Shown in pieces: positions 3,556 through 45,489 of a stretch of 64,000 nucleotides of DNA. The translations under genes and the position numbers were made by a program. The stretch spans positions 634 through 64,633 of the forward strand of contig CAVPHZ010000002.1 of assembly GCA_963704905.1 (NCBI GenBank), written 5' to 3'. Position 1 is the first letter of the stretch. The number at the start of each line of letters is the position of its first letter. Under the pieces are notes generated by a model. That model had not been told where the DNA came from. It was given only the letters and a program-made list of their open reading frames with translations, and did no database searches. The DNA comes from Candidatus Chisholmbacteria bacterium. GTDB lineage: Bacteria > Patescibacteriota > Microgenomatia > UBA1400 > Chisholmbacteraceae.

Positions 3556-4292
3556 AAAAGGTACTTCCCAAACTTATAACTGTTACCCTTGCCGTACCAG
3601 TCTACAACGAACAACAACAACTTGAGAAAAATATCAAGAAGCTGAATTCCTTCATAACGGAAAACAAATTTTCTAACTTTAGCATTCAAATAGTCATTGT
3701 TGATAATGGCTCAACTGATGACACACCCAACATCGGCAATACGCTTGAGAGAGAAATAGAAAACGTAACATATCTTCGTTTAGAGGAAAAAGGAAGAGGA
3801 CGTGCCTTAAGAGCTATTTGGATGAAAAGTGAAGCAGATATTCTATCGTACATGGACGTCGATCTTTCCGCAGACCTCGAAAGCGTGTACCCACTTCTCA
3901 GTATAGTGGCATCAAAAGATGCAGAGATTGCCATCGGCTCAAGACTTATGAAGGAGTCAGATGTAAAGGGAAGAACTCGTGCTAGAGAGATCATGTCTCG
4001 AAGTTACAATTTCTTAGTTCAGGTGCTGCTGAATGTCAAGATAAAAGATGCACAATGTGGATTTAAGGCTATACAACGAGATGCATTCCGTACAATCGAG
4101 CCTAAGATACAAAATCAGAATTGGTTTTTTGATACAGAATTGCTAGTGATTGCCAGCAAAATGGGATTGAGGATTCATGAGATACCAGTCAAATGGACAG
4201 ATGATCCAGGTTCTACTGTCAAGATTGCCAGAACTGCAATGGAAGACATCCATGGGATAATGCGATTAGTAAAGGAAAAACCATGGCTCTAA
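3552..4292 (+). CDS. GT2 glycosyltransferase, dolichyl/polyprenyl-phosphate beta-glucosyltransferase (Alg5/DPG-synthase)-like
   Basis: VTLAVPVYNEQQQL...IVIVDNGSTDDT...EEKGRGRALRAIW...DVDLSADLE...AIGSR...CGFKAIQRDAF. The start at the internal Met (3552) gives an ATGA overlap with the upstream stop; the ORF-track start at 3525 is also possible. Confidence 0.85.
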   Translation: MKKVLPKLITVTLAVPVYNEQQQLEKNIKKLNSFITENKFSNFSIQIVIVDNGSTDDTPNIGNTLEREIENVTYLRLEEKGRGRALRAIWMKSEADILSYMDVDLSADLESVYPLLSIVASKDAEIAIGSRLMKESDVKGRTRAREIMSRSYNFLVQVLLNVKIKDAQCGFKAIQRDAFRTIEPKIQNQNWFFDTELLVIASKMGLRIHEIPVKWTDDPGSTVKIARTAMEDIHGIMRLVKEKPWL

Positions 4293-5824: not shown

Positions 5825-5828
5825 GATT

Positions 5829-6590
5829 ATGTTCGACAAAGCCCCCTATTTATCAGTTGTCATACCAGCTTATAACGAAAAAGCAAACTTCAAAAAAGGT
5901 GTGCTCGAGCAGGTCAATACGTATTTAAAGCAAAGAGAATACTCATTCGAAGTAATTGTAGTTGACGACGGATCAACTGACGCAACAGCAGATTTGGTAG
6001 AGAAGTGGATAGTAGGAAAAGGAAATTGGAAGTTAATTCGTAAACCGCACAAAGGCAAGGCTCCCGCAGTTACAGCAGGTATTAAAGAAGCAATAGGAGA
6101 AATAATTGTTTTTACTGATTTTGATCAAGCAACCCCAATTAGTGAAATAGAAAAACTCTTACCCTTTATGAAAAAAGGATACTCCATTGCTATCGGATCA
6201 CGTGAAGTAAAAGGAAGCAGGAGAGAAGAAGAGCCATGGCATCGACACCTCATGGGTAGAGGGTGGAACATCATCGTACAAATAGTTGCGCTTCGAGGCA
6301 TCCACGATACCCAGTGTGGATTTAAGTTATTTAAAGCAGATAGTGCCAAAAAGCTCTTTGATGGGCTTTATGTCTATAAAGATGCAATAGAGAAGGAAGC
6401 CTATACAGGTGCTTTTGATGTAGAATTGTTATACCTCGCTCAAAAAAAGGGACTTCAAATTGCTGAAGTACCAGTCCATTGGAAGCATATTGATACAGAT
6501 CGAGTAAACCCCATTCGTGACTCGGTTCGTATGTTTATTGACCTTTTAAAAATACGACTCGCAGATGTAATGGGAAAGTATGAAAAATAA
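5829..6590 (+). CDS. GT2 glycosyltransferase, polyprenyl-phosphate sugar synthase (Alg5/DPG-synthase-like)
   Basis: LSVVIPAYNEKANF...VIVVDDGSTDATADL...GKAPAVTAGI...FTDFDQATP...AIGSREVKGS...QCGFKLFKADSAKKLF. An AAAGGAGG RBS lies upstream. Confidence 0.88.
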   Translation: MFDKAPYLSVVIPAYNEKANFKKGVLEQVNTYLKQREYSFEVIVVDDGSTDATADLVEKWIVGKGNWKLIRKPHKGKAPAVTAGIKEAIGEIIVFTDFDQATPISEIEKLLPFMKKGYSIAIGSREVKGSRREEEPWHRHLMGRGWNIIVQIVALRGIHDTQCGFKLFKADSAKKLFDGLYVYKDAIEKEAYTGAFDVELLYLAQKKGLQIAEVPVHWKHIDTDRVNPIRDSVRMFIDLLKIRLADVMGKYEK

Positions 6591-7752
6591 GAGATTCTTA
6601 TTGATATTATTAGGGTATATACTAACCCTTTTTGGACTGCTGGTTTATTCATACGCCCACATCGATCTCAACCTCACACTTTCATCAAATTCTTTCTATC
6701 AAAGCTTTCAAAATCAACTCATTCAGCTTGGATACTTTAAACGGGGATTATCCACGCAGCTATTTGTAGTACTTACAACTCTTCTCTTCATACTCCAATC
6801 GATAGTTGTAGATGCCATTAGAAAAAAATATATTCGGACAAGTCACGTTCTTAAGCTAAGTATAATAGCTGCTGGGCTATTACTATTTGCGTATCCTGCT
6901 TTTTCCCATGATATCTTTAACTATATTTTCGATACGAGGTTACTCATTGAGCACAACGTTAATCCTTGGCAGTACACAGCCCTAGATTTTCCGCAGGATC
7001 TATGGACTCGATTCATGCGCTGGACTCACCGGACCTATCCATATGGACCAACATGGCTTCCCTTGACTGTCCCATTTTATCTTGCTGGGTTAGGAAAATT
7101 TACACCCACATTGTTTTGGTTCAAGTTTCTTGGTGTGCTGAGTTACCTAACCAGTGTGTGGTCGGTCAAAAACATACTTAAAATGACTAAGCCCAAGTAT
7201 CAGACGGTCGGACTGGCGCTTTTCGCATTGAATCCATTAATAATCATCGAAAGTTTAGTGACGGCTCATCTCGATGCAGTCATGGCTGCAGTCTTTTTGG
7301 CTGGGTTGGTTTTTTTACTCAATGGTAGAAATGTCTTAAGTTGGATTTTCTTACTGCTTTCAGCTGGGATGAAATATGTCACCGCCTCAGCGGTACCAGT
7401 GTGGTTATGGTGGAAAGGAAAAAAGAATAACTTCAATCAAGCGGTTATGACAATGCTTGTGTTTTCACTCGTAGCTACAGGAGTTGCAATTTATCTTCGA
7501 GAAATTCTTCCCTGGTACTTTATCACGCCGTTGGCATTACTCTCGCTCCTCCCAGAAAGGAAAGAACTCCAAGCAGCAAGTAGTATCATTTCCGCAGGTT
7601 TGCTGTTTCGTTACACACCATTTATTCTGATTGGAGAGTACACACAACAAGTCAATACCATGAGGAATGTTGGCACTGGAGTAGCTTTTCTAATTAGTAT
7701 TGCAGTATTCGTATGGATAAAAAACAAAAGCTTCTCTTCACCTTCATTATAG
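6580..7752 (+). CDS. GT-C-like polytopic membrane protein, DUF2029/GT87-like (putative polyprenyl-P-sugar-dependent glycosyltransferase)
   Basis: At least 9 predicted TM segments, with the motif block SHDIFNYIFDTRLLIEHNVNPWQYTALDFPQDLW...YPYGPTWLP. The same motif block occurs in the 47122 and 48446 genes. The family call is from memory of DUF2029 signatures. Confidence 0.55.
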   Translation: MKNKRFLLILLGYILTLFGLLVYSYAHIDLNLTLSSNSFYQSFQNQLIQLGYFKRGLSTQLFVVLTTLLFILQSIVVDAIRKKYIRTSHVLKLSIIAAGLLLFAYPAFSHDIFNYIFDTRLLIEHNVNPWQYTALDFPQDLWTRFMRWTHRTYPYGPTWLPLTVPFYLAGLGKFTPTLFWFKFLGVLSYLTSVWSVKNILKMTKPKYQTVGLALFALNPLIIIESLVTAHLDAVMAAVFLAGLVFLLNGRNVLSWIFLLLSAGMKYVTASAVPVWLWWKGKKNNFNQAVMTMLVFSLVATGVAIYLREILPWYFITPLALLSLLPERKELQAASSIISAGLLFRYTPFILIGEYTQQVNTMRNVGTGVAFLISIAVFVWIKNKSFSSPSL

Positions 7753-9080
7753 TCGTTGGATTCTTACTCCGGATTTATAAATTGAGAAGCGCAATGGGCT
7801 TTGATTACGATCAAGAGGTTGCTGCATTTGCGGTTCAAAGGATTCTATCTGGGGATTTTACTCTCATCGGTCAGGAAATTAGCATCGGTGGTGTATTTAT
7901 TGGTCCTGGATACTATTATCTGTTATCAATCTTCTATTGGTTGTTTGCTGGAGATCCGCTCGGAGCGGGAGTGATGGTTTCGCTATTCTCAGTAGCAACT
8001 ATGGTATTACTATTCTCCGTCTCTCGTAGTCTCACAAATATAGAAACAGCATTCATCGCGCTCACGCTCTTTGCTACTAGCAGTAAAATCATCTTCTTTG
8101 ACAGAACCACAGCTCCATCAAATCTCTTGATGCTCTCAGCATTACTCGTGCTATTTATTCTTATTCAAATTAAAAAGTATGGATCAAAACTAGTTCCACT
8201 ACTCAGTCTCATCCTCAGTGGGGCAGTTATTCATATTCACCCGACTGCTATTACTCTCGCACCAATAATATTTTTCCTTTGGCGGTTATGGAAATTGGCA
8301 AAACCAAATCCAAGTCAGATTCTCATGACAATGATAGCTGCGCTTCTTCCTCTTTCACCACTTATCATTTTTGACCTAAAGAATAACTTTCTCAACTTAA
8401 GAGGAGTCTTCCATGCGACAGGCATCCATGGCAGCGAAGCTTACTTCTTTCTATTAAAGTTTCTTCTACTGGTACGGATACAGATTGAGAACCTTGCCTC
8501 GCTATTTCCTTTCGGGAATTTAAACCTACTCATTGCAATTTCCTTTGTGTTCATATTCATACGATATTCAAAAAAAGAAAATCGACAACTATTGGTGGGA
8601 TGGGTGCTGATGTCAACCATGACACTCAGCTTCTACACAAGACATGTTCCAGAATATTACCTGCTCCCGTCTTTACCTGCTTTGCTAATTATCGCTGCAG
8701 TAGCGATAAGATTAATAATCAAAACGTTACCTAATAAAGTCATCTTGACCGCATTCCTCTCAATAGTTCTGTGGAACGGCTACCTTTCACTTTTGACTGA
8801 TAATCCGTACAGCCTATTGTACCGTCAGCAAACTGTCGACTATATTAAAACAGCCCAAAAAGAGGATGTGTATGTTTCCTTTGACACAGATTATGGACTA
8901 GAATCAGGATTTCATTATTTACTGAAGGTCAATGATGTTAAAATAGCCGATAAAGATCATATACCCTCTCACACGATTATCATGCCTCCAGATAGAAGAA
9001 TCGCAAAGAATAGGGAAGTTACATTCGGTGGTATAAAAGTGATAGAAAATATAGAGAGAACCTCAATAAATCATGAGTAG
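7713..9080 (+). CDS. GT-C fold membrane glycosyltransferase, ArnT/PMT-like paralog
   Basis: FDYDQEVAAFAVQRILSGDFTLIGQEISIGGVFIGPGYYYLLSIFYWLFAGDPLGAGVMV aligns residue-by-residue with the 4283 protein and with pseudogene 11461. Confidence 0.7.
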   Translation: MDKKQKLLFTFIIVVGFLLRIYKLRSAMGFDYDQEVAAFAVQRILSGDFTLIGQEISIGGVFIGPGYYYLLSIFYWLFAGDPLGAGVMVSLFSVATMVLLFSVSRSLTNIETAFIALTLFATSSKIIFFDRTTAPSNLLMLSALLVLFILIQIKKYGSKLVPLLSLILSGAVIHIHPTAITLAPIIFFLWRLWKLAKPNPSQILMTMIAALLPLSPLIIFDLKNNFLNLRGVFHATGIHGSEAYFFLLKFLLLVRIQIENLASLFPFGNLNLLIAISFVFIFIRYSKKENRQLLVGWVLMSTMTLSFYTRHVPEYYLLPSLPALLIIAAVAIRLIIKTLPNKVILTAFLSIVLWNGYLSLLTDNPYSLLYRQQTVDYIKTAQKEDVYVSFDTDYGLESGFHYLLKVNDVKIADKDHIPSHTIIMPPDRRIAKNREVTFGGIKVIENIERTSINHE

Positions 9081-10596
9081 AATTGCACAGATCTCACTAG
9101 TTTTGTTGATGAGTATAAAACTCTTTATCCTATACTGGGAAGATTCAGCGAAATTTTCACAACAAGTGCATGTGGAGTCTAGTTCCTCACTTACTGATTT
9201 CGAAGTCCTAAGTCAAGTGAACTATTATCAGTTCAAATTCAGGCCTCAATCGACTCAACAGATTACTGTAAACATTCCACCTAGATATGGATTGAATTTG
9301 TATGTTGATGGAGTTAAAACCAATTATCAAGACAAGAAGTCTCAAATAAGTTTTGAGGTCCCAAAAAGGGAATGGGGAAGGTCAAACGTCGTGATAAGGA
9401 ATGAGTCACCGCTTGAAATTTGGATCGACTTGTTGATCGCAATATCAGTAATAGCAATGATATTTTCAGTCTCGAATCAGAAACAAAAAAATGCAGTCGC
9501 AGTACTCCTCCTTTCCTTTTCAGTTGTATATATTAGCGTATATATTTCACTGCATTTTGGAAAAATCTTTGAAAAAACTAACATAAATAAATACGCAGAT
9601 TTATACCAAAGGTCACAGTACGTTATGGGTCAAGGTGCAGATGAGATTGTTGAAGATGAAGTTGTATATACACTTGCCGGGTACCACTACGCAGTTGATG
9701 GAGCTGATCCGACTTCCATTGATTTTGAACATCCACCTTTAGCTAAGTATATGTACGGATATGCAATACGACTGTTTGATCGTGCTCACCTAGCAAGCAT
9801 GGGAACGTACATACTATTAGTCGGTATATTTTTCATAGTTTCTCGACTAGTGTTAAGAGATCAGTTGCTCTACGCTAGCGCAGTTGCTTTGTTTGCCGTA
9901 GAAAAAGAGACTTTATCGTTAATGCGTTCTGCGACCTTAGATCTGCCACTCACATTATTTTTACTATCAACTTATTTGTTTTACTTACTCTTAGAGAAGA
10001 AGAAAAATTTTGCTCTGATACTTCTGATGGGAGTTGGTTTGGGCTTTTCAATGGCAGCAAAAATTTATTTTACAGCTATCATCTTTTTCCTAATTATTGT
10101 ATTAGATATGCTTTTAAATAATAAAAAGATATTAAAGTACTCTATTCCAATAATTCTCGTGGCTGTAGCAATCTATACTCTCACTTATGCAGCCTTTTTA
10201 AAAGACCATTCCTTTTCTGAATTTATAAATTTTCAAAAATGGATGCTCTCATGGTTCAAAGGTAAACCTGATACAAAAGGTATTGGAGCAATCTTCTCAA
10301 CCTTATTCATAGGCAGAATTAAGGCATGGTGGGATTTTGAAACAGGAAATATTATCCGTATAACGAACTGGAGCCCATTCTGGAGTCTATATGGAGCATC
10401 TACTATGATTGGAGCTTTAAAGTTCTTGAGAACAAAAAAGTATCATATAATATACATCTGGCCAGTGGTCTACTTACTATTTTTAAGTCTGGGTGCATCT
10501 GGACCGAATTTACTTGTAGTCTTGTTCCCATTTTTTGTGCTGAACTATGTACTACTAGTATCAATTATCTCAAAACATTTTAGCAATAACCCATGA
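9073..10596 (+). CDS. protein O-mannosyltransferase-like GT-C (PMT family, GT39-like) with extra N-terminal ~130-aa domain
   Basis: First-loop acidic motif GADEIVEDE and the canonical PMT/ArnT HPPLAKY motif, followed by multiple TM helices. The N-terminus carries a signal-anchor and a beta-rich segment not seen in the other paralogs. Confidence 0.72.
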   Translation: MSRIAQISLVLLMSIKLFILYWEDSAKFSQQVHVESSSSLTDFEVLSQVNYYQFKFRPQSTQQITVNIPPRYGLNLYVDGVKTNYQDKKSQISFEVPKREWGRSNVVIRNESPLEIWIDLLIAISVIAMIFSVSNQKQKNAVAVLLLSFSVVYISVYISLHFGKIFEKTNINKYADLYQRSQYVMGQGADEIVEDEVVYTLAGYHYAVDGADPTSIDFEHPPLAKYMYGYAIRLFDRAHLASMGTYILLVGIFFIVSRLVLRDQLLYASAVALFAVEKETLSLMRSATLDLPLTLFLLSTYLFYLLLEKKKNFALILLMGVGLGFSMAAKIYFTAIIFFLIIVLDMLLNNKKILKYSIPIILVAVAIYTLTYAAFLKDHSFSEFINFQKWMLSWFKGKPDTKGIGAIFSTLFIGRIKAWWDFETGNIIRITNWSPFWSLYGASTMIGALKFLRTKKYHIIYIWPVVYLLFLSLGASGPNLLVVLFPFFVLNYVLLVSIISKHFSNNP

Positions 10597-11483
10597 GGAG
10601 TATGAACATATCAACCACTTGTTATGTGTGCAGTCAGAGAAGAGTAAAAAAAGCCTTTGATAAGTTAGGTTGGACCATTTTGAGGTGCAGCGCCTGTGGA
10701 CTCTACAGCTTGAAATTTGAAGGTTCGTACGAAAAGTTCATTAAAGAGTACTACAACAAAAAGTTTTTTACTGGAAGCAACGAAAGAGCAGGGTATTTCG
10801 ACTACGAAGGTGACAAAGAAGCTGAAAGGCGAAATATGAATTCATATCTTGAGGGCATTCGATCATCAGTGAAAAAAGGCACACTTCTTGATGTAGGCTG
10901 TGCAACCGGACTTTTTATGATCGAGGCTGAAAAAGCAGGTTTTGAGGTGTATGGTGTAGATGTTTCAAAATACGCGATCGATATTGCCAAAAAACGTTTC
11001 AAAAACAAAGTCAAACAATCAAGTATCGAACAGGCTCACTTCAAAAAGAATACCTTTGATGTCATCACGCTCTTTGACGTCATTGAGCATGTAAGCAAGC
11101 CAAGAACAGTGCTTAAAAAGCTTCGCTCTCTACTTATGGACAATGGGCTATTAGTGATAAATACTGGTGATACTGGAAGCCTGTTTGCTAAGATGCAAGG
11201 CTCGTATTGGCATTTTTTTATCCCACCACAACATTTTTTCTATTTCAGCAAAAGTACATTAAGCAAACTTCTTTCGCAGGAAGGATTTGAAGTTCTTCGA
11301 GTTGAACACAAGGGGAAATGGGTGAGTCTTCGGTACCTTTTTCATCTCGCCCGACAAATTCAAAATGATATATTTGGAAAAATCGGCTTCTCTTTGGTTG
11401 GAAATAATGCCATTGGTAAGATACCGGTGTACCTTAATTTATTTGATAACATGACGGTATATGCCAAAAAAACTAACACGTAA
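10593..11483 (+). CDS. class I SAM-dependent methyltransferase with N-terminal CxxC...CxxC zinc ribbon
   Basis: CYVCSQ...CSACG zinc ribbon, then SAM motif I LLDVGCATGLF, EVYGVDVS and motif post-II FDVITLFDVIEHV. Start and stop overlap as ATGA. Confidence 0.85.
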   Translation: MRSMNISTTCYVCSQRRVKKAFDKLGWTILRCSACGLYSLKFEGSYEKFIKEYYNKKFFTGSNERAGYFDYEGDKEAERRNMNSYLEGIRSSVKKGTLLDVGCATGLFMIEAEKAGFEVYGVDVSKYAIDIAKKRFKNKVKQSSIEQAHFKKNTFDVITLFDVIEHVSKPRTVLKKLRSLLMDNGLLVINTGDTGSLFAKMQGSYWHFFIPPQHFFYFSKSTLSKLLSQEGFEVLRVEHKGKWVSLRYLFHLARQIQNDIFGKIGFSLVGNNAIGKIPVYLNLFDNMTVYAKKTNT

Positions 11484-12662
11484 GAGGAAAAAAAGCACAG
11501 GGAAATGGAGCAAGTCACATGTCTTATTGCTTATCTTCATCTCGATCATAGGCTTGGCACTCCGTTTAGGACCAGTTTTTCGCGATACTGTTCACTTCAG
11601 CTACGATCAAGGAGTCGATCTCGCGCTGGTTCGCACGCTAATCAATGACCATAAACTCAGCCTTATTGGTCGCTTCACAGGATTACAAGGTGTCTTCATG
11701 GGACCATATTGGACATTTGCATTAGCCATTCCCTATGTCATCAGTGGAGGAAATCCGGCAGCGAGTGTTATCGTTTTTTTCGCTTCTGGGAGTAGTTGCT
11801 ATATGGATTACTTACTCGATTGTCAGGAAATGTTAGATGAAAGGGTTGATCTATCGTGCTTTATATGTTGCTATTTCGAATCCTTTCGTCAGCGCGTGCT
11901 CACGTTGTTCTTTCACCCAGCCCTCTTCTCTACCTTATGATATTTTATATTTGGTTTCTATGGGAATTCGTCAAAATAAAAACCTGAGAGTTCTTCCCCT
12001 CCTTGCGTTGCTCATCAGTTTCTTTTTTCAACTGGAAATCGGTTTTGCCCTCTTTTTCTTACCAGCGACATTCATTGTGATTGTATCCTTTAAGGCTTTT
12101 CGGAAACTTACTTTAAAGCACCTCGGTATTGGTTAGTTGGTTTTTTCCTTCCTTTTCTACCTCAAGTACTTTTTGAACTTCGCCACGACTTTCTGATGAC
12201 AAATTCAGTATTGCGTTTACTCTCCGGAGAAAATACTAGCCTAGGAATTCAAGGCACAGGTCTGCTAGCCCGATTTAGCATACGAGCCGGATACATTATG
12301 GGAAGATTACGTGTCATCAGTGAGTTGGATCGGAAATAATTTACTAGCCACTCTCTTCATCACAGTACCTGCGATCTATGGAATTCAGGCTAAACTTAAA
12401 AATAACAGATGAAAAACTTCATCATCATGCTGTTCTAATCATCCTAACTATGTATGTGGGTTTTGCACTCTATCCCGCACCGGTGTGGGTGTGGTATCGA
12501 GCTGGTGTGCCAATTGTCTTTGTACTTCTTATTGCTATTGGCTGGACCAAGCTTATGGATGAAAACATATATGGAATAAGTTTAACGTCATTTTATTTTA
12601 CTGGACTTGTGCTGGTTAACATTAATCCAGTCATTCTAATATCACAATTTATTCGACATTGA
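11461..12662 (+). pseudogene. decayed ArnT/PMT-like GT-C paralog (multiple frameshifts, truncated)
   Basis: ORF 11461..11940 matches the N-terminus of the 7713/4283 family (FSYDQGVDLALVRTLINDHKLSLIGRFTGLQGVFMGPYWTFALAIPYVISGGNPAASVIVFFASGSS), then degenerates. A second frame (11837..12136) continues the homology (LPLLALLISFFFQLEIGFALFFLPATFIVIVSF versus 7713 VPLLSLILSGAVIHIHPTAITLAPIIFFLWRLW). A third fragment (12378..12662) is hydrophobic. The total remnant is shorter than intact paralogs. Confidence 0.7.
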
Positions 12663-13035
12663 GCAGTGGTGTTTCTTCTTGAAGAGCCAAAAACAGGCAA
12701 TTGACTCATCATGAAGGATGGTGGTGGGGATAAACTACGATCTTTACGTATATACTCCGCCAGTTTACACGTATGTTTGGGATCACATGATCTATTGGTA
12801 TGCAAGAGAACAGTTATGATAATCTACCAAATGATTATGGATATAGAGATCTCCAGAGGCTGAATAATTTTTATTTATTAATCGAACCAGATGACAATAC
12901 AAGACAGAATTGACGGATGGAAAGGTAACTTTACCAGTGAAGGTCAATCTACTCAAACCTGGCATCTCAACAGTGGCATAACCATAGAAAAATGGGAAGC
13001 AAATTCAAAGACAACTGAAGAGATACGCTAATCAC
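12663..13035 (+). promoter_or_regulatory. only sizeable non-coding gap in the window; presumed promoter/5' leader for the downstream YfhO-like operon
   Basis: About 370 nt without a convincing ORF, AT-rich, sitting between a pseudogene and a run of ATGA-coupled genes. No confident -35/-10 pair could be picked out by eye. Confidence 0.3.
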
Positions 13036-15342
13036 ATGAACAGGAAACATATAGTCCTGCTATTGGCATTTTTTATTTTTATTCCATTTATTATTTATTG
13101 GAAAATTCCACTCTTAGGTCTCATTCCATTTCCCGGAGATCTCCTAGTAGGAAGATTTTTTCCATTCAATTCTGTGGAGTGGCTAGGGTATCCAAATGGC
13201 GTGCCGTATAAAGAATTCATCAACGCTGATGTAGTCAGACAGCTCTATCCATGGAGAAATCTAGCCATCACTACGCTTAAAAGCGGTCAACTCCCAGGAT
13301 GGAATCCTTATGCATTTTCAGGAAATCCTCTTCTTGCAAATATTCAATCGGCCGCATTTTATCCCTTAAATATTCTCTATTGGTTGATGAGCCATCAATC
13401 AGCGTGGATCGTTGGAGTTCTTCTCCAACCCATACTAGCAATGATCTTTATGTATATGTTTACCAAAGAGTTAAAGTTCTCGTCACCAGCGTCAATTCTA
13501 TCAAGCCTAGCATTTGCCTTCAGTGGGTATATGGTAGTCTGGTGGGAGTTTAATACTGTTGGTCATGCTGCACTTTGGGCTCCACTTATATTGTGGGCTA
13601 TTGAGCGATTTAAACAATCGAAGCACTCGAAATATCTCATAGTCATATCATTTGCACTTTCAGCATCTTTGCTGGCTGGACATCTCCAGACCTCGATCTA
13701 TGTGACGATCATCTCAATCACTTATGCCGCCTTTCGGTTATCACAAGAAGAAAGACGATCTCTGCTTGCAGTCAAACTAATAATTGCTATGACAACAAGC
13801 ATTCTCATTGCTTTTCCACAGTTGCTACCAGCCTTGAAATTTGCTCCACTCACGCCAAGAGGTACACAACCGGATGCTGAAATCTTCATGCAGTTTAGAA
13901 TACCTCTCGAAAATCTCATAACATTCTTATCTCACGACTACTTTGGAAATCCAGCGGTAAACAACTTCTGGGGAAAAGATTATGGAGAATTCATGGCATA
14001 TTTTGGAGTCATCGCATTTATCATGAGTCTCTTTGCACTGCAAAACAATGATAGAAAAACCAAGTATTTTTTCGTTATAGCTGGTCTTGCGCTCATCTCA
14101 GCTCTAAAAACACCACTTCCTCTTCTACTTCATAAAATGAACATTCCAGTTCTCTCAACAAGTGCACCATCTCGAGCTGTATTTATCGTTCACTTTGCAG
14201 CAAGTGTGCTGGCTGGGTATGGTTTTGATGCTTGGAAAAAATACAATATCAATAATATAAAGAAAACTCTAATTCTGGTGGTGCTGATCTTTGCAGCTGC
14301 GTGGATTGTCGCGTTCATTGGATCTTTAAGTTCAGATCTAGCGCATTCAGCGCAATGGAAAGTCTCGCTGAGAAATCTCATCATCCCAACCGGCATTGCT
14401 ATAGCACTATCCGCACTCACGGTTATAAAAGATCATGACTATGTTAGGTCATTCAAATATATTTGGAAGCCGAGCCTCATTGTGTTGTTTTCTTTAGTCA
14501 TTGGAGAATATGTGTATTTTGCCAACAAATATCAGACTTTTTCCGAACCACAATTTTTCTTTCCCAAATCACCAGTCTACGAATATTTGCGAAACGAAAC
14601 TCGGGAGATACCCTATCGATTTTTCGGGGATTACACCGCTTCTGTCACTAGTAATTCTTGGTTACCTTATAATGTATATGGTGTAGAAGGCTATGATGGG
14701 CTTTACTTAAGACGTTATGGTGAGTTATTGATATCTTCACATGAAGGGAAAATACCGGTATCAGTACCAAGATCAGATGCGAACCTTAAAACAAACAGTG
14801 ACGATGTACGACGTAGACGCTTGCAGGACCTTTTAGGAGTGAAGTTCATTCTTGATAAAAATGATTATCCGCAGAGTGATTGGGATCCAGATCCGGTGCG
14901 CTTTCCGGAGGATCGCTATCAACTCATCTGGCAAAAAGGAAAGTTTAAAGTATATGAGAATCTGCAGGTCTTCCCAAGGGCATATCTAGTATCGAATTAT
15001 CTGGTAGAAAAAGAACCTCAAAATATTATTGATATCATTTTCAATGAGAACATCGATCTAACAAAAACCTTGGTTTTAGAAGAAGATATTAAAAAAACAT
15101 TAGAGGCTTCTGAAGGATTAGTACAATTTCAGACCTATGCTCCCAACATCATTGAGCTAGTTGTGGATACCCCAACGCAGCAATTGTTATTCCTTTCAGA
15201 CTCTTTCCATCCAGATTGGCAGGCTTTTGTCGATCAAGATGAGGTGGAAGTCTATAGAGCAGATTATGCATTTAGAGCTATCCTCATTCCTTCAGGGCAG
15301 CATAAAATTAAATTTACGTACAAACCGACCTTTCTTAGATGA
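13036..15342 (+). CDS. YfhO-family GT-C membrane glycosyltransferase
   Basis: YfhO N-terminal loop signature ...LPGWNPYAFSGNPLLANIQSAAFYPLNILYW, many TM segments, and a C-terminal extracytoplasmic domain with FHPDWQAFVDQDEVEVYRADYAFRAILIPSGQHKIKFTYKP. Confidence 0.85.
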   Translation: MNRKHIVLLLAFFIFIPFIIYWKIPLLGLIPFPGDLLVGRFFPFNSVEWLGYPNGVPYKEFINADVVRQLYPWRNLAITTLKSGQLPGWNPYAFSGNPLLANIQSAAFYPLNILYWLMSHQSAWIVGVLLQPILAMIFMYMFTKELKFSSPASILSSLAFAFSGYMVVWWEFNTVGHAALWAPLILWAIERFKQSKHSKYLIVISFALSASLLAGHLQTSIYVTIISITYAAFRLSQEERRSLLAVKLIIAMTTSILIAFPQLLPALKFAPLTPRGTQPDAEIFMQFRIPLENLITFLSHDYFGNPAVNNFWGKDYGEFMAYFGVIAFIMSLFALQNNDRKTKYFFVIAGLALISALKTPLPLLLHKMNIPVLSTSAPSRAVFIVHFAASVLAGYGFDAWKKYNINNIKKTLILVVLIFAAAWIVAFIGSLSSDLAHSAQWKVSLRNLIIPTGIAIALSALTVIKDHDYVRSFKYIWKPSLIVLFSLVIGEYVYFANKYQTFSEPQFFFPKSPVYEYLRNETREIPYRFFGDYTASVTSNSWLPYNVYGVEGYDGLYLRRYGELLISSHEGKIPVSVPRSDANLKTNSDDVRRRRLQDLLGVKFILDKNDYPQSDWDPDPVRFPEDRYQLIWQKGKFKVYENLQVFPRAYLVSNYLVEKEPQNIIDIIFNENIDLTKTLVLEEDIKKTLEASEGLVQFQTYAPNIIELVVDTPTQQLLFLSDSFHPDWQAFVDQDEVEVYRADYAFRAILIPSGQHKIKFTYKPTFLR

Positions 15343-17702
15343 AGCCAAAGATTAATAAATTATTCCCACTTGGAATTGTGTTCCTTTTTTCTTGCCTGAT
15401 CTTTTGGAAATCAATTGTTTATGGATTAGTGCCTATTCCATTCGATCAACTAGTGACCGGTTTTTTTCCATATAACAATGGTGGATGGACTCAAGTGGGT
15501 GCATTTCCACAACCAAAAGGTGGTTGGTATGCAGTCGATGCCATCCGTCAAATGTACCCTTGGAAAGAATTAGTGATCGATCAACTAAAGAATGGACAGA
15601 TTCCTCTTTGGAATCCATATAATTTTTCCGGATATCCTTTGCTTGCAAATATCCAATCTGCAGTCTTCTACCCGCTCAACTTAGTCTTTCTTATCCCATC
15701 TTTTCCCTGGTCTTGGACTGCGTACATTGCGCTTGCTGTACTGCTACCTGCGTACTTTATGTTTCATTTCCTCAGATCATTGGATCGATCACCATTGGCA
15801 TCAGTAATTAGTGCGATTGCATTTGCAGGAGCTGGGCAAATGATTGACTGGCTCGAGTGGGGGGTGATCACTCACACATTCATTTGGCTTCCGCTGTCAC
15901 TATATTCGATAAACAGATTCACACAGAAAAAAGATAAGAAATACTTATTACTCTTTATCTTTAGCATCATCTCAGCGATCTTTTCAGGATATCCACAAAG
16001 AGCTGCCTACAGTCTTATTGTTATTGTATTGTGGATTTTCATGAAATGGAGATCTCAAAAAAAATCTTCAATGAAACATCTAGTACCGATTTCCATGGCA
16101 TTCCTGCTCGCAATCAGCATGACAGCTGTGCAGTGGATTCCGACCGCTGAGTTTTACTTTCATTCGGCTATGCGGGGAGAAGTATCTGAACAGTTAAGCG
16201 AAAGAGGGGGTCTTCCTTGGCAGCAACTGGCAACTATTTTTGCTCCCGATTACTTTGGAAATCGGGTCACCAATAACTATTGGGCCAAAGACTTTGGAAA
16301 CATCGATTACATGGATGCTGATTTGTACATAGGGGCATCAGTAATTCCACTCATACTCTTAGCAATCTTTAGCCTCAAAAATAATAAACATATAAAATTT
16401 CTCACAATTCTGACCGTCATTGGCTTGCTGCTAGGTATCCGTAGTCCAATCTCAGGTATCGTCTCAGGTCTTGGAATTCCAGTGATCAGCACAGGCGTTG
16501 CCTCAGAGGCACTTATTATCACAGTTTTCTCTCTGGCTGCGCTCGCTGCATTTGGTTTTGATGATTTAAAAAGTGAAATCAGTTTTAAAAGACGATTAAC
16601 CTCAATTACAATAACCGGCGCAATCTATGCTCTTTTAATCTTTATGAGTCTCACATTTGATCAGGATAAAACAAGAACTGCATTACGAAATCTCGTTGTA
16701 CCAGGCACAGCTTTTCTTGGTGGAGCCGGTGCAATGATTGTCTTTATCAAGTTCAAGAAATCAACAATCCCGGCATTGCTGTTTATCGGATTCCTCTCAG
16801 TTGAACTACTGTTCCACTCAAATAAGATGCTTTCATTCTCTTCTCCAAACTTAGCGTATCCAGAACACATCCTCTTCAGTGAATTAAATAGCATTGCTGG
16901 CAATGATCGTGTTGCAGGATTTTGGGAAACTGAGATCTCTCCAAATATTCAAACCGCTGTGAGGATGAATTCAATTGAAGGATACGATCCTCTCTACATT
17001 TTACGTTACGGGGAGTTTATAAGTTCAGCTCAACAAGGAAGGTTAGAAAAGATAATTCCTAGGTCCGACGCAGATCTTGAACAGAAAAATGAGCAGAATC
17101 GCAACCGTGTTCTTGACTTAACCAGCGTAAAATATATACCTGCTAAAGTCACCAAATCTGATGAACTTTGGGAGCAAGAACCATTGAAGTACAATCCGCA
17201 GCGTTTCAAACTCGTCTGGCTGCAGGATCGTTTCAAGATCTATGAAAATCTTCACGCTCTCCCGAGAGTCAAGCTCTATTCAGATTGGGAGGTTATAGAA
17301 AGCGATGAGCAGATCATCGAAAAACTCTACGATCCAACCTTCAATCCTCAATCAACAGTAATTCTTGAACACCAGCCCCTACTTAAAGGTTCCGAACCTT
17401 TAAACGGAAAAGTAAGGATAACCTCATATGAACCGAATCGTGTTGATATTGAATCACAGTCAAATATACCAGCAATTCTTCTCCTCACAGATTCTTATTA
17501 TCCTGGCTGGAAAGCCACGGTTGATGAGAAACCTGTAGATATACTTCGTGCCAATTACACTTTTCGTGCGATTGAAGTTCCAGAAGGGAATCATAATATT
17601 ACTTTCAGTTATCAGCCAATTAGCTTCAAAGTCGGGTCCTTAATAAGTATTGTAAGTACTATTGTTGTAAGCGGACTAATCTACACTAAGAAAATATTAT
17701 GA
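15339..17702 (+). CDS. YfhO-family GT-C membrane glycosyltransferase (tandem paralog)
   Basis: IPLWNPYNFSGYPLLANIQSAVFYPLNLVFL and C-terminal YYPGWKATVDEKPVDILRANYTFRAIEVPEGNHNITFSYQP. ATGA coupling to the upstream paralog. Confidence 0.85.
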   Translation: MKPKINKLFPLGIVFLFSCLIFWKSIVYGLVPIPFDQLVTGFFPYNNGGWTQVGAFPQPKGGWYAVDAIRQMYPWKELVIDQLKNGQIPLWNPYNFSGYPLLANIQSAVFYPLNLVFLIPSFPWSWTAYIALAVLLPAYFMFHFLRSLDRSPLASVISAIAFAGAGQMIDWLEWGVITHTFIWLPLSLYSINRFTQKKDKKYLLLFIFSIISAIFSGYPQRAAYSLIVIVLWIFMKWRSQKKSSMKHLVPISMAFLLAISMTAVQWIPTAEFYFHSAMRGEVSEQLSERGGLPWQQLATIFAPDYFGNRVTNNYWAKDFGNIDYMDADLYIGASVIPLILLAIFSLKNNKHIKFLTILTVIGLLLGIRSPISGIVSGLGIPVISTGVASEALIITVFSLAALAAFGFDDLKSEISFKRRLTSITITGAIYALLIFMSLTFDQDKTRTALRNLVVPGTAFLGGAGAMIVFIKFKKSTIPALLFIGFLSVELLFHSNKMLSFSSPNLAYPEHILFSELNSIAGNDRVAGFWETEISPNIQTAVRMNSIEGYDPLYILRYGEFISSAQQGRLEKIIPRSDADLEQKNEQNRNRVLDLTSVKYIPAKVTKSDELWEQEPLKYNPQRFKLVWLQDRFKIYENLHALPRVKLYSDWEVIESDEQIIEKLYDPTFNPQSTVILEHQPLLKGSEPLNGKVRITSYEPNRVDIESQSNIPAILLLTDSYYPGWKATVDEKPVDILRANYTFRAIEVPEGNHNITFSYQPISFKVGSLISIVSTIVVSGLIYTKKIL

Positions 17703-18337: not shown

Positions 18338-18435
18338 GTGCTCTCACGACTCACTATACTAGCCCTTCGAAAAAGAACAGCAAACAACTTCAGAGGAGAA
18401 CAGATGATAGAATTGACCGAGATGAGATATTTTCT

Positions 18436-21153
18436 ATGAAAAAGAAACGAAATTCATCAATGTATAAGTGGATTCTGGTTATTGTTCTGCTTTCACTTTT
18501 CATCATTTGGCCGATGTTCCGGTCCGGATACTGGGAGAGTGATGATGGGGAGTGGATGGTGATTCGCTTTTCAGCCTTTCATGAATCACTAACAGATGGT
18601 CATTTTCCAGTTCGCTGGACGCAGAGGTTAAATCACGAGTTTGGCTATCCGGTCATGAATTTCTTGTATCCACTCCCGTTTTATCTTGCTGAATTGCCAA
18701 AGACACTTGGACTTGGTTTTGTTGATAGTGTCAAAGTCGTATTTGCCTCAAGTGTCGTAATCTCTGGTATTGGTATGTTTCTCTATGCCAAAAAGTGGGG
18801 AAGATTGGAAGGATTGCTTGCTTCAATCTTGTATTTATTCGCTCCATATCGCTTTTTTGTCCTCTACACCAGGGGATCATTAGGGGAGAGTGTAGCACTT
18901 GCCTTTGTACCTTTTCTATTTTATTTATTAGATCGACTTTTCAAGAAACCAAATATGAATAATACTTTGTTAAGCGGCATCATATACGCCACACTCATCA
19001 TGTCGCACAATGTTATCGCACTATTATTCACACCCATCGCCATACTGTACGTCTTCTTCAAACGAACAAGTAAAAAATTTTCACTTACCTATCCCCTTTT
19101 TGCCCTCACTATTGGTCTGTTACTTTCAGCATTTTTCTGGCTACCAGCGATAGCTGAACTGCAATACACCAGAGCAGCGAACCTCGTAATCTCCAACTAC
19201 AGCCAGTATCTTTTAAATGATCCACAGCTCATCTCACGACTTGGGCCAATTCACATGTTTGTTATAGCGGCAGGGTTAATTCTTGGTGCAAAATTCTTTT
19301 CAATCATTGGAATAGTCGTTGCATTTCTGATGCATACAAGCTTCAGTCATATTACGCAGTTTGTACCATTAATTCAAAAAATACAATTTCCATGGAGAAT
19401 GAGCACCGTATTCATGTTTGCTTCAGCCGCAACTGGAGCAAAGGTAATAAGCTCTAAACAAATTAAGAAGCGAGTCAAACCATTTATTGTCATCATCATT
19501 GGTGCGATATTTATTGCATTGTCATTCAATCAAACATACGGCATTAGATACGTTTCAAGAGATGAAGGGTTTTATACAACTAATGATGATACGACGACAG
19601 TGCAAAATGAATTCACGCCAATTTGGGTAATGAATGATCCAAAAAACAAAGTTGACCAGATGTTTGAGATTAAGTCTCATTCGGGAAAGTATGAAATTAC
19701 TGGTGAAGACCATCGAACTGGCTTTCACTTTTTCCAAATCCGCCTTAAAGACGAGGTGATCATTAAGGCTAATATTCATTACTTTCCTGGGTGGGAAATC
19801 TATGTTGATGATAAGAGAATAGAGCTAGATCCATCTCAAACTAATGACCTCTTAGAAGTCTTAGTTACGCCAATAGAATTTAAACTCAGAGATGTTAAAT
19901 TTGTCTTTGAATCAACGCCAATTCGCAAAATTTCAGAGTGGATTTCGATAATTGCTGCGGTTGGAATCACTGCATATTTCATATTCAAATATTTCGGAAA
20001 AAAAGATTGGAAAAAAGCATTGGGGATAACCACTGGAACCATTGCTATCCTAACGATAACGTTCTTTCTGCTGTCAAATCTTCATACATTTAGTGACACC
20101 TTTGACCCGAGAATTTCAGAACAAAAATATCTCAACTCTCAATGGATTGAAGGCGATGCAGGAAAAAATGTTCCCATAGGAGATAGTGGATTATATGCTT
20201 GGGCAGGATGGGAATATGTTCACGGAATAAATCCAATTCTCATTAATCCAGAAATGCCACCGATGGGAAAATACATCATTGGATTGGGGTTGTTGACACT
20301 TCACAGACCTGCAGTCATTGGCCTTATTTTTAACGGCTTTGCACTTCTCTCTCACTTTTTCTTAGCTAAAGAAGTAGTGAAGAATAAATGGCTAGCTATT
20401 ACATCAACCGCCCTTTTATCAACCGAGCCCATCATGAGAAACTTGCTCAACCTAACCATGCTTGATGGTCTACAATTGGGTTTTCTTAACCTAAGTTTCT
20501 TATTTTTCATAAAAGGCTTAAAAAATAAACCCTGGTTTATTCTCTCCTCGCTCATGCTTGGTGCGATGGCGTCTACCAAATTTTATGCTTCATCAGCTTC
20601 TGTTATTGGAAGCCTACTTTTATATCTAATAATTTCTCGAAAGTGGAGAGAATTGTGGTACTTCACATTCACCTTGCCAATAGTTGCCCTCGTACATACA
20701 TTTCAGTACATTGTTTACTTTCTAGACGGGAACTCACTGAGAGGATATCTCGGTGTACAAAAATGGATCTATACATTTTACAAACAAGGGAATGTCGGAA
20801 CGATTCCTGCCGGTTCATACTGGTTACTTGTGCTATTTAATCGCTGGAGAGTCTGGTTTACCGATGAGTGGGGCGTCTATAAAACGATTACCAGTGATTT
20901 GTGGAGATTTTCTTGGCCATTGAATTTATTTGCTGTATGTTCCTCAGTTTACCTATCCCTCAAAAAGCAGTTTCAGGAAGGTCAAAATGTTCTCATTATC
21001 TGGTTGCTTGTTTACAGCGGGTTCCTGACCTTCGTCATTGGCTGGCCACATTACATGCTACTCTATTTGCCTTTCAGTTATATCTTGCTTGTCTCCCTTA
21101 TTGATAAACTCGCACCTATTACCTTGAAAAGACTGGAAAAATGGAAAAAGTAA
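18436..21153 (+). CDS. large GT-C-like polytopic membrane protein, divergent YfhO-related family (C-terminal PGW domain); paralog of 21141 and 53800 genes
   Basis: N-terminal signature SGYWESDDGEWMVIRFSAFHESLTDGHFPVRWTQ...GYPVMNFLYPLPFYL, at least 12 TM segments, and C-terminal HYFPGWEIYVDDKRIELD as in the YfhO C-terminal domain. 905 aa. Confidence 0.6.
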   Translation: MKKKRNSSMYKWILVIVLLSLFIIWPMFRSGYWESDDGEWMVIRFSAFHESLTDGHFPVRWTQRLNHEFGYPVMNFLYPLPFYLAELPKTLGLGFVDSVKVVFASSVVISGIGMFLYAKKWGRLEGLLASILYLFAPYRFFVLYTRGSLGESVALAFVPFLFYLLDRLFKKPNMNNTLLSGIIYATLIMSHNVIALLFTPIAILYVFFKRTSKKFSLTYPLFALTIGLLLSAFFWLPAIAELQYTRAANLVISNYSQYLLNDPQLISRLGPIHMFVIAAGLILGAKFFSIIGIVVAFLMHTSFSHITQFVPLIQKIQFPWRMSTVFMFASAATGAKVISSKQIKKRVKPFIVIIIGAIFIALSFNQTYGIRYVSRDEGFYTTNDDTTTVQNEFTPIWVMNDPKNKVDQMFEIKSHSGKYEITGEDHRTGFHFFQIRLKDEVIIKANIHYFPGWEIYVDDKRIELDPSQTNDLLEVLVTPIEFKLRDVKFVFESTPIRKISEWISIIAAVGITAYFIFKYFGKKDWKKALGITTGTIAILTITFFLLSNLHTFSDTFDPRISEQKYLNSQWIEGDAGKNVPIGDSGLYAWAGWEYVHGINPILINPEMPPMGKYIIGLGLLTLHRPAVIGLIFNGFALLSHFFLAKEVVKNKWLAITSTALLSTEPIMRNLLNLTMLDGLQLGFLNLSFLFFIKGLKNKPWFILSSLMLGAMASTKFYASSASVIGSLLLYLIISRKWRELWYFTFTLPIVALVHTFQYIVYFLDGNSLRGYLGVQKWIYTFYKQGNVGTIPAGSYWLLVLFNRWRVWFTDEWGVYKTITSDLWRFSWPLNLFAVCSSVYLSLKKQFQEGQNVLIIWLLVYSGFLTFVIGWPHYMLLYLPFSYILLVSLIDKLAPITLKRLEKWKK

Positions 21154-22895
21154 ATTCTTTACTCAAGCGTCATTGGGCATTCATCGTCATTGTCTTTCTG
21201 ACAATTCCAGCCATGCTTCCATTATTCAAATCTGGATTCTTTCCCATACATGATGATCAACAGGTGGTTCGATTATTTGAACTGGATCGATCGCTTGCCG
21301 CTGGCCAATTTCCTGCCCGGTGGGTTAAGAATCTTGGCTTTGGATTTGGTTATCCATTATTTATTTTTTATCCACCTTTCATCTACTACCTTGGGGAAAT
21401 ATTTCACCTTGGTTTGGGAACAGGATTTATCGATTCAATAAAATTGGTCTTCGCAGCCGCATTTATTGGGGCAGCATATTCTATGTATCTTTGGGTAAAA
21501 GAGCATTTCGGTAAAGTACCGGCAATTGTTGCCGCAGCATTGTATACCTACGCGCCATATCATGCAGTTGATGCATATGTAAGAGGTGCGCTTGCTGAGC
21601 TCATGTCGTTTGTCTGGCTACCTGTAATTTTACTCGCTACAGATCGGTTAATCACAAAAAAACAAAAGCACTATTGGCTGTGGCTGGGAGTTTTTCTCGC
21701 ACTTCTGATGATCACGCATAATCTTATCTTTCTACCATTTTTCCCACTCTTTCTGATTTACGCTGGCTTTCTCCTTCTAAAAACAACTAATAAAACACCC
21801 CATATACTACATACTATTTACGCTATACTCTTAGCCCTTGGACTCAGTGCCTTCTTCTGGATTCCAGCACTTATTGAAAAGCAATACACGTTGGTAGATT
21901 CAATCTTGCTTTCAGAACTGGCCAGTTACAAACTACATTTTGTTGAGTTACAACAACTATGGAACTCTCTTTGGGGATTCGGCGGCTCAACCGCCGGTCT
22001 CTTAGACGGTCTATCGTTTAAAATTGGTAAACTCCATGTAGTTCTTTCAATATTCTCGGTAGCTGTTTTGGGAGTTTACTACAAGCAGACGCGAGAAAAA
22101 CCAATAACATATTCTGTATTTATTGTCTCAATTCTTACTCTCCTAAGTGTATTCCTCACAACTGTGTTTTCTCAAGTCATCTGGGAAATAGCTAGTCCAC
22201 TGCAATTCCTCCAATTTCCCTGGAGATTCCTGACATTTATCGTTCTTGGTTCTGCATTCCTCTCAGCCGGTTTTATTTATGCCTTCGAGATCATACTCAA
22301 AAACTCACTCGCAACACTTGTCCTAGTGATTACGGTTCTTATTCTTTTATTCATTCCAAACCTCAAACTCTTTGCACCCCAGTCATATCTTGATGTAACT
22401 GATAGCTATTACACATCAGATGATTTCATTAAATGGAGAATCAGCAAAACCAGTTTTGAATTTGTACCAAAAGGAGTTAAAACAACTACGGAATATCAAC
22501 AACTTGAAAATAAAGAGATCACTCAGGTTGCAATAAGCGAAAATGAAATTCGAAAAACAGCATATGAAGTTCTCAGCGGAAATGTTGAAGTAAGTATTGT
22601 CCAAGATAATCCCGGAAATATCATACTAGAAACAAAATCAAGCCAAGAAAGCCAAGTTCAGCTCAATACATTTGATTTCCCTGGCTGGTCGGTACGATTG
22701 GATAGGGAAAATATTCAGCACAGTTCTCAAAATGATTTACATTTGATACGGGTAAATATTCCTGACGGTGAACACACGATTGAAGCAAGATTCTCAGAAA
22801 CCCCAGTAAGAAAGCTTTCAGACCTCATAACTCTCTCATCTCTTGGTATTTTCTTCTACTTTTTATTTAATGAGTACTTACTTAATAAGAAGTGA
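21141..22895 (+). CDS. GT-C-like polytopic membrane protein, divergent YfhO-related family (paralog of 18436/53800)
   Basis: SGFFPIHDDQQVVRLFELDRSLAAGQFPARWVKNLGFGFGYPLFIFYPPFIYYL...YTYAPYHAVDAYVRGALAE, with C-terminal FDFPGWSVRLDRENI. Confidence 0.6.
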   Translation: MEKVNSLLKRHWAFIVIVFLTIPAMLPLFKSGFFPIHDDQQVVRLFELDRSLAAGQFPARWVKNLGFGFGYPLFIFYPPFIYYLGEIFHLGLGTGFIDSIKLVFAAAFIGAAYSMYLWVKEHFGKVPAIVAAALYTYAPYHAVDAYVRGALAELMSFVWLPVILLATDRLITKKQKHYWLWLGVFLALLMITHNLIFLPFFPLFLIYAGFLLLKTTNKTPHILHTIYAILLALGLSAFFWIPALIEKQYTLVDSILLSELASYKLHFVELQQLWNSLWGFGGSTAGLLDGLSFKIGKLHVVLSIFSVAVLGVYYKQTREKPITYSVFIVSILTLLSVFLTTVFSQVIWEIASPLQFLQFPWRFLTFIVLGSAFLSAGFIYAFEIILKNSLATLVLVITVLILLFIPNLKLFAPQSYLDVTDSYYTSDDFIKWRISKTSFEFVPKGVKTTTEYQQLENKEITQVAISENEIRKTAYEVLSGNVEVSIVQDNPGNIILETKSSQESQVQLNTFDFPGWSVRLDRENIQHSSQNDLHLIRVNIPDGEHTIEARFSETPVRKLSDLITLSSLGIFFYFLFNEYLLNKK

Positions 22896-32503: not shown

Positions 32504-32554
32504 AATTTTCTCAACAGGTTTGTCTATAATAGCAGGAGAGAACCTATTCTAGCT

Positions 32555-45481: not shown

Positions 45482-45489
45482 ATCGCCTA

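Follow-up and report, generated by a model that had tools for sequence, protein, structure and literature searches.

What do two adjacent genes of the YfhO family do in a bacterium of the Candidate Phyla Radiation (CPR), and do they work as a unit? We addressed this question in 64,000 nucleotides from a Candidatus Chisholmbacteria bacterium (GenBank assembly GCA_963704905.1, contig CAVPHZ010000002.1, positions 634 to 64,633), a stretch that is called the window below and whose first letter is position 1. The two genes, Y1 (13036..15342, 768 aa) and Y2 (15339..17702, 787 aa), lie on the plus strand. Our reading, which we consider probable, is that they are old and functionally separate paralogues that carry out distinct steps in the building of an extracytoplasmic glycan from polyprenyl-phosphate (polyprenyl-P) sugars.

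Y1 and Y2 are YfhO-family glycosyltransferases

The two open reading frames (ORFs) and their ATGA overlap stand as a first-pass annotation of this DNA had described them: the ATG of Y2 (15339-15341) lies over the TGA of Y1 (15340-15342), as read directly at 15339..15342 of the plus strand, and both proteins carry the WNPY..G.PLLANIQSA.FYPLN loop (WNPYAFSGNPLLANIQSAAFYPLN in Y1, WNPYNFSGYPLLANIQSAVFYPLN in Y2). The C-terminal PGW motif, which had been ascribed to both, is present in Y2 (YYPGWKATVD), whereas Y1 has PDW in its place (FHPDWQAFVD). In a profile search with the PF09586 hidden Markov model (HMM; gathering score 28.5 bits), Y1 was significant at 123.8 bits and Y2 at 79.3 bits (E = 2.9e-22). 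The other members of the family in the window, the two halves of a split gene, Y3 (ORFs at 27872 and 29011; Y3-N 35.6 bits, Y3-C 54.2 bits), and a fourth paralogue, Y4 (93.9 bits), were also above the gathering score.

An alignment of 86 homologues (A1) was the basis for both an AlphaFold2 model of Y1 and the analysis of residue conservation. The model (mean predicted local distance difference test score 95.4, predicted template modelling score 0.94) places membrane helices between residue 3 and about residue 499, followed by an alpha/beta and beta-sandwich domain, and this GT-C fold is compatible with YfhO. Both Y1 and Y2 have a multi-helix membrane module, with a putatively catalytic first extracytoplasmic loop (EL1), and a large extracytoplasmic C-terminal domain. 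Y2 ends in a transmembrane (TM) anchor (residues 763-781) and shares with Y3 the topology of B. subtilis YfhO, an ecto-domain followed by a last TM helix, of which Y1 and Y4 have only the ecto-domain. The terminal helix has been lost in the Y1 and Y4 clades and in 22 of the 86 homologues, and is retained in the Y2 clade. A sequence search of the PDB with Y1 gave no match at E<=1, and no solved YfhO structure was found by sequence or fold search; sequence identity between the window proteins and any solved GT-C enzyme is 8-13%, and the best structural matches include AftD and AftA.

Fourteen positions are invariant in all 86 homologues (D65, P72, P87, W89, G96, Q104, W124, P183, G304, G324, R528, G552, W728 and G754), and D35 is found in 77 of them. 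Essentially all the invariant positions are retained in Y1, Y2 and Y4, and D65 is present in all of Y1-Y4. D65 is located where the EL1 helix begins, following the first TM helix. In GT-C enzymes the catalytic acid usually occupies this position, and from the model D65 is predicted to have that role. Taken together, HMM, fold and conserved residues demonstrate that Y1 and Y2 are genuine YfhO-family GT-C glycosyltransferases.

The two genes are old paralogues with orthologues of their own

Y1 and Y2 are 32% identical over 759 aa, Y4 is 30-32% identical to either of them, and all paralogue pairs in the window fall between 25 and 37%. Each is closer to its own orthologues in other genomes: 53-58% for Y1, 49-54% for Y2 (P0077, P0083, L001, L003 and L004) and 41-44% for Y4, which reaches 74% over the N-terminus in L013. 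Among the best 120 database matches to Y1, 110 were closest to Y1, 6 to Y2 and 4 to Y4, and the genomes nearest to Y1 (53-54%) were Ca. Chisholmbacteria, of the Microgenomates group of Patescibacteria. Y1 itself was matched at 100% identity on a contig of 508,777 bp. A phylogeny of the copies, proposed in the first-pass annotation, bears this out: in a neighbour-joining tree Y1, Y2, Y4 and Y0, an 844-aa YfhO protein found in relatives only, fall into clades of their own, all of which include sequences from several genomes. Y3, which has diverged much further, groups with YfhO proteins from outside the CPR. A recent tandem duplication of Y1 and Y2 is ruled out by their 32% identity and their separate orthologue clades. 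The ratio of nonsynonymous to synonymous substitutions between the two is not meaningful, because synonymous sites are saturated at such distances (copies 32% and orthologues about 55% identical at the protein level).

The difference between orthologues and paralogues is also seen in the ecto-domain, which is 56-68% identical between orthologues for Y1 and Y2 and 40-51% for Y4, as against 31-33% between Y1 and Y2 and 26-33% across all paralogue pairs; the EL1 region, the catalytic loop, is 45-52% identical between paralogues. Such divergence would be expected if the paralogues had each retained an acceptor-recognition surface of their own, and multiple paralogues with distinct specificities are a reasonable reading of these sequences. 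The earlier idea of many distinct specificities had been put forward for seven YfhO genes, where we count four.

The neighbourhood of the pair is conserved as well. In the related loci compared (L001-L004 and L013) the order Y1, Y2, (x), a 905-aa GT-C fusion, a PTPS_related gene, Wzx, a glycosyltransferase family 2 (GT2) gene and the split YfhO is kept, with protein identities that vary from gene to gene between 44 and 75%. The conserved order begins upstream with PMT_2 (4283), GT2, GT87-like, PMT_2, methyltransferase and PMT_2-like genes before Y1 and Y2, continues through the fusion, PTPS_related, Wzx, GT2, split YfhO, GT2 and GT2, and ends with a 32447-like gene, GT2, methyltransferase, GT4 and Y4; a few insertions and deletions distinguish these loci from the window. 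Of two more distant loci, the CPR contig L010 carries a comparable array in which there is only one YfhO gene, and in L009 (Roizmanbacteria) YfhO stands alone. L005 shares synteny with the window, identities reaching 57%; it and L006 are GTDB records named "uncultured Gammaproteobacteria bacterium" that hold a Patescibacteria-type GT-C array or YfhO gene, and both look mislabelled.

The overlap between Y1 and Y2 reflects genome compactness

The ATGA overlap had been taken as a sign of translational coupling within the pair. Overlaps of 4 bp (ATGA or GTGA) occur at 19 of the 47 same-strand junctions in the window, where they are the commonest junction type, and in relatives Y1 and Y2 are separated by spacers of 2-73 nt, the overlap being absent in all of L001-L004. 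The overlap reflects the compactness of the genome and is not a conserved property of the pair; the overlap count and the spacers rule out a special coupled pair, and translational coupling as a conserved feature of these two genes is not supported.

The window as a whole is a near-uniform co-directional gene array, with 48 of its 49 ORFs of at least 150 aa on the plus strand and a GC content of 0.38-0.42 throughout. A promoter scan of positions 11400-18600 returned 16 sites where 19.7 were expected from shuffled sequences, which is no excess, and the 8 terminator-like sites in the same interval (4.4 +/- 2.4 in shuffles) included none that was convincing. Directly downstream, a gene for an HD-domain phosphohydrolase-like protein (17699-18337) is joined to Y2 by a further ATGA; none of the related loci examined has this gene at the same position.

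A proposed role for the pair and its alternatives

It has been previously reported that YfhO enzymes work at the outer face of the membrane together with a GT2 synthase of C55-phosphate-linked (C55-P) sugars and a GtrA-type flippase (PMC5836110, PMC8035078), and that their acceptors include lipoteichoic acid, wall teichoic acid and Ser/Thr-rich proteins (PMC5836110, PMC8035078, PMC12041528). The YfhO-type enzymes PgtC2, PgfM1 and PgfM2 O-glycosylate Ser/Thr-rich proteins; S. mutans has three YfhO-type enzymes, two of them in one operon, and PgfM1 and PgfM2, which share an operon, have non-redundant roles and different phenotypes (PMC12041528). These enzymes contradict the earlier view that YfhO acts on teichoic acids only. 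The window gives no pointer to teichoic acid, and Listeria GtlB, which had been suggested for comparison, is a PMT_2 protein and not a YfhO protein (PMC8035078, Table 2).

Our proposal starts from the family membership, fold, conserved residues, duplication age and synteny established above; the type of donor, the extracytoplasmic site of action and the distinct specificities are what we infer in addition. Small cytoplasmic GT2 enzymes of the island would load sugars onto polyprenyl phosphate, and its GT4 and GT2 enzymes would make a lipid-linked oligosaccharide. GtrA-domain and Wzx-like proteins would flip the lipid-linked sugars and the oligosaccharide, and on the outer side of the membrane Y1, Y2 and about 19 other GT-C enzymes would extend a surface glycan, each contributing one particular residue or linkage. 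This glycan may be a polysaccharide or may belong to a surface glycoprotein. Candidates for the supporting parts are present in the island (small GT2s, a GtrA domain, Wzx, GT4s, a GDP-mannose dehydratase and epimerases). On this view it is the retention of the whole assembly line as one compact co-directional array, and not any special coupling between them, that makes Y1 and Y2 neighbours.

Several observations weigh against this proposal. No GT2 gene directly adjoins the Y1-Y2 pair, unlike csbB-yfhO; none of the island GT2s reaches a curated NCBIfam cut-off, so that the donor-synthase role is assigned by resemblance only; and the gene for the GT2-GtrA fusion is frameshifted in the window. 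In addition, Y2 has Met at position 275 (R275M), where 78 of the 86 homologues have Arg. Nor does the 64-kb window hold an acceptor gene, whether for a Ser/Thr-rich protein (across the 49 ORFs, Ser and Thr together make up at most 32% of any 40-aa stretch) or for teichoic acid (no LtaS, TagF, TarL or other teichoic acid gene or domain).

One alternative is that Y1 and Y2 are enzymes of protein O-glycosylation of the Pgf or PgtC2 kind, which would transfer polyprenyl-P sugars onto Ser/Thr-rich surface proteins (pilins, S-layer proteins or adhesins), one starting the glycan and the other extending it. In its favour, PgtC2 and PgfM1 are YfhO-family enzymes acting on Ser/Thr-rich regions and PgfM1 and PgfM2 combine a shared operon with different phenotypes (PMC12041528). 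The island also has epimerases and weakly PgfS-like small GT2s, and the oligosaccharyltransferase-like fold of the 32447 and 34446 products makes protein glycosylation plausible somewhere within it. However, the lack of a Ser/Thr-rich ORF in the window, together with a Wzx flippase and several GT4 and GT2 enzymes that better fit a lipid-linked oligo- or polysaccharide, leaves this explanation possible but on the doubtful side. A different acceptor, lipoteichoic or wall teichoic acid, might be glycosylated by the YfhO paralogues as in B. subtilis, S. aureus and Listeria; a Gram-positive-like envelope, which CPR bacteria probably have, counts in favour of this reading. Such decoration is the best-characterised function of the family (PMC5836110, PMC8035078), but not a single teichoic acid gene was found in 64 kb of otherwise pure glycan-synthesis genes, and the known YfhO acceptors include proteins. 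Orthology to the Firmicute enzymes is not indicated either, as the retrieved CPR sequences carry family-level names only; with the low identity of the window proteins to solved GT-C enzymes (8-13%, as given above), we regard teichoic acid decoration as quite improbable.

Two further explanations concern the relation of the genes to one another. Y1 and Y2 might form one obligate heteromeric complex, comparable to Pmt1-Pmt2 or EmbA-EmbB, with the ATGA overlap ensuring equal amounts; but this junction is the default one in the window and is absent in relatives, distant CPR genomes manage with a single YfhO gene in a similar array (L010) or a lone gene (L009), and each protein keeps a full catalytic set, which makes the heteromer unlikely. 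That one of the two is a redundant duplicate decaying into a pseudogene would fit a neighbourhood in which a multi-frameshift pseudogene (11461-13010) adjoins and the 844-aa YfhO of relatives is missing. Yet both ORFs are full length and retain the invariant residues, and each belongs to an orthologue group of its own that has been maintained at about 50-58% identity; decay is hardly credible.

Comparison with characterised systems places the proposed separate roles of Y1 and Y2 in context. With CsbB-GtcA-YfhO of B. subtilis, S. aureus and L. monocytogenes the pair shares PF09586, the multi-TM module with a large extracytoplasmic domain, the final TM helix (in Y2) and candidate GT2 and GtrA-type partners in the same island; it differs in the four paralogues, where Firmicutes have one, in the lack of an adjacent csbB-like gene and of teichoic acid genes in the window, in the missing last TM helix of Y1 and Y4, and in the CPR host, whose contig measures about 0.5 Mb. 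The streptococcal Pgf (PgfS-PgfM1-PgfE-PgfM2) and GtrB-PgtC2 systems likewise bring together two YfhO-type GT-C enzymes, a GT2 lipid-sugar synthase and an epimerase in a cluster, whereas the window has many more GT-C genes and no genes for Ser/Thr-rich acceptors, and the relatedness is at the family level only. In the mycobacterial Emb/Aft assembly of envelope glycans, a dozen or more GT-C enzymes with polyprenyl-P-monosaccharide donors build a complex glycan outside the membrane; the structural matches to AftD and AftA and the GT87/MptA-B-like genes are points of likeness, while here the genes form one contiguous co-directional array in a very small genome and belong to the YfhO, PTPS_related and PMT_2 families instead.

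Four YfhO loci, one of them split

The first-pass annotation had counted seven YfhO genes in the window. The pair, the gene at 38844 and the split gene at 27872/29011 belong to the family, giving four loci and five ORFs, and the genes at 18436, 21141 and 53800 do not. Y4 (38844..41093, plus strand, PF09586 E = 1.2e-26) encodes 749 aa without a C-terminal anchor.

Y3 consists of two 380-aa ORFs on the plus strand that meet in a cytoplasmic loop. Y3-N (27872..29014) is the N-terminal, TM half and matches PF09586 profile positions 61-357; Y3-C (29011..30153) comprises the last TM helices, the ecto-domain and the TM anchor and matches positions 754-835. The protein keeps D65 and WNPY, and the D35 loop and several other positions are lost. 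An ATGA at 29011-14 forms the junction, with a purine-rich, Shine-Dalgarno-like run upstream. The Y3 orthologue in L011-L013, with identities of 54% and 44%, has its split at the same site, again with an ATGA, preceded by GAGAGGAGAAAAGG; in L013 the Y3-N orthologue lies at 7758-9080 and the whole split gene at 7758-10156. These relatives were recovered by a metagenome scan with a two-sequence alignment, an earlier scan with the concatenated gene having found none. The best match to Y3-C among 1.84 billion representative proteins is a stand-alone 373-aa protein (46%), followed by fused proteins of 715-717 aa (36%), and full-length homologues about 28% identical to Y3 span the junction. An exact-protein look-up gave no record for Y3-N, which was also missed by a word-indexed homologue search and is possibly annotated as a pseudogene at source. 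Because the split lies at the same position in a relative at 44-54% identity and the C-terminal half has a stand-alone homologue, these comparisons show that Y3 is an inherited, maintained two-polypeptide arrangement and not an assembly error.

The genes at 18436, 21141 and 53800, all on the plus strand, gave no PF09586 match at E<=0.01 and lack the WNPY loop; they share with YfhO only the C-terminal FPGW motif of the beta-domain and are members of a sister GT-C family, PF10131 (PTPS_related; cut-off 26.4 bits), their second match being PMT_2 or a sub-threshold STT3. The first (18436..21153) is a 905-aa fusion of a PTPS_related GT-C (PF10131, residues 78-368, 43.1 bits) to a PMT_2 GT-C (PF13231, residues 608-748). 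The C-terminal part of this protein resembles the 9073 gene. L001-L004 and L013 have the same fusion, 906-943 aa long; in L005 the two modules are not fused. The second (21141..22895) reaches 37.8 bits with PF10131 and has its FPGW motif at 514. The third (53800..55551), which is 30% identical to 21141, is PTPS_related-like, with a PF10131 score just below the cut-off (25.9 bits) and a weak STT3 match.

The surrounding island of GT-C genes

The pair is part of a much larger set. Multi-pass membrane proteins are encoded by 23 ORFs at 22 loci, which total 38.3 kb or 60% of the window. Direct GT-C evidence was obtained for 22 ORFs at 21 loci, a lower bound, and the 22nd locus (22892) has no class. 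The earlier count fell short of the real pattern, which is that the window contains at least 21 GT-C genes: 8 PMT_2, 3 GT87-like, the 4 YfhO loci, 3 PTPS_related, 1 PIG-V-like and 2 in a Pfam-less pair (32447/34446).

Upstream of Y1, a block on the plus strand (4283..10596) comprises PMT_2 (4283), GT87-like (6580) and two more PMT_2 genes (7713 and 9073), interleaved with the GT2 gene 5829; it is syntenic in L003 and L004 except for 9073, which has no counterpart there. Directly before Y1 lies a plus-strand PMT_2-like GT-C pseudogene with several frameshifts (11461..13010), over which a tblastn search with the intact 532- and 563-aa orthologues of L003 and L004 (Ca. Chisholmbacteria) jumps between frames 1, 2 and 3. 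At this position relatives carry the extra 844-aa Y0, which the window does not have. The pseudogene and the absent Y0 show that genes have been lost from the island.

Two paralogous Pfam-less GT-C genes with an STT3/PglB/AglB-like fold (32447 and 34446) follow further downstream (32447..36143, plus strand). A second block (41961..53063, plus strand) includes six PMT_2 genes (41961, 43610, 45490, 49891, 51465 and relatives) and two GT87-like genes (47122 and 48446). In it 41961, 43610, 45490 and 51465 are mutually 34-37% identical, 49891 is more distant, and the two GT87-like genes are interleaved. This PMT_2 run is a second expansion of old paralogues, resembling that of YfhO. A PIG-V/PMT_2-like GT-C gene (57403..58548, plus strand) completes the series.

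Candidate donor and transport genes, all on the plus strand, are distributed among these. A Wzx/MurJ-type polysaccharide flippase (25462..26970; PF13440, 1.4e-52) is 70-75% identical and syntenic in relatives. A GT2 enzyme fused to a GtrA/DPMS TM domain (2445..3555), a candidate polyprenyl-P-sugar synthase/flippase, has a 1-nt frameshift near 2620, where one extra base follows GGAAAA (CAAGGAAAAGTACGAT); its orthologue has 401 aa, and the shift is either a mutation or a consensus error. Phase variation of this gene was considered and is not supported, there being no long homopolymer tract at the shift. Small GT2 genes for candidate polyprenyl-P-sugar synthases lie at 3525..4292 (PF00535, with weak AglJ, PgfS and DPhHx matches below curated cut-offs), 5829..6590, 31042..31770 and 53060..53803, and a fifth small GT2 (59462..60145) has the best PpgS-like match (NF058614, 6.7e-52, 176 bits, below the 370-bit cut-off). 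Together with the GT2-GtrA fusion, these five resemble PpgS, AglJ, PgfS, ArnC and Dol-P-hexose transferase, in all cases below the curated cut-offs. Apart from the GT-C genes, the window encodes about 11 GT2 and 4 GT4 enzymes, 3 S-adenosylmethionine (SAM) methyltransferases, a GDP-mannose 4,6-dehydratase, three epimerase/dehydratase proteins and the HD-domain protein.

Some further differences in gene content were observed. A 511-aa multi-TM protein (22892-24427) and the adjoining gene for a soluble 341-aa protein with a weak LacZ/beta-amylase-like (TIM-barrel glycosidase) match (24424-25449) are inserted between the PTPS_related and Wzx genes in comparison with related loci. The only sizeable minus-strand gene in the 64 kb (31739-32503) encodes a SAM methyltransferase and lies between two plus-strand glycosyltransferase genes.

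Implications for the CPR envelope

The Y1-Y2 pair is in itself unsurprising, being two more members of a known enzyme family. The notable feature is how densely GT-C genes are packed, and how well they are conserved, in a CPR genome of reduced size. We found no published description of this: literature searches on YfhO, GT-C enzymes or glycosyltransferases in Patescibacteria or CPR bacteria returned no relevant paper. We tentatively suggest, as a possibility that we rate below even, that the island is a near-complete assembly line outside the membrane, in which an ultra-small episymbiotic bacterium uses at least 21 GT-C enzymes to make a large and complex coat of surface glycan or glycoprotein, and Y1 and Y2 carry out consecutive, possibly physically associated steps. 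If so, it would be functionally analogous to the mycobacterial assembly of arabinogalactan and lipoarabinomannan, would have evolved independently and would take up several percent of the genome, and it would include four YfhO paralogues, a conserved split YfhO, a GT-C-GT-C fusion and a Pfam-less STT3/AglB-like family. The split YfhO and the Pfam-less STT3-like family may interest structural biologists working on GT-C enzymes, and the array provides a defined gene set for the study of the CPR envelope. Although CPR/Patescibacteria genomes are drastically reduced, this lineage keeps at least 21 GT-C genes, for enzymes predicted to depend on polyprenyl sugars, in one conserved block of 60 kb, 38 kb of GT-C genes on a 509-kb contig, and the retained array argues that a surface glycan is central to its lifestyle, perhaps in host attachment, phage evasion or envelope integrity.

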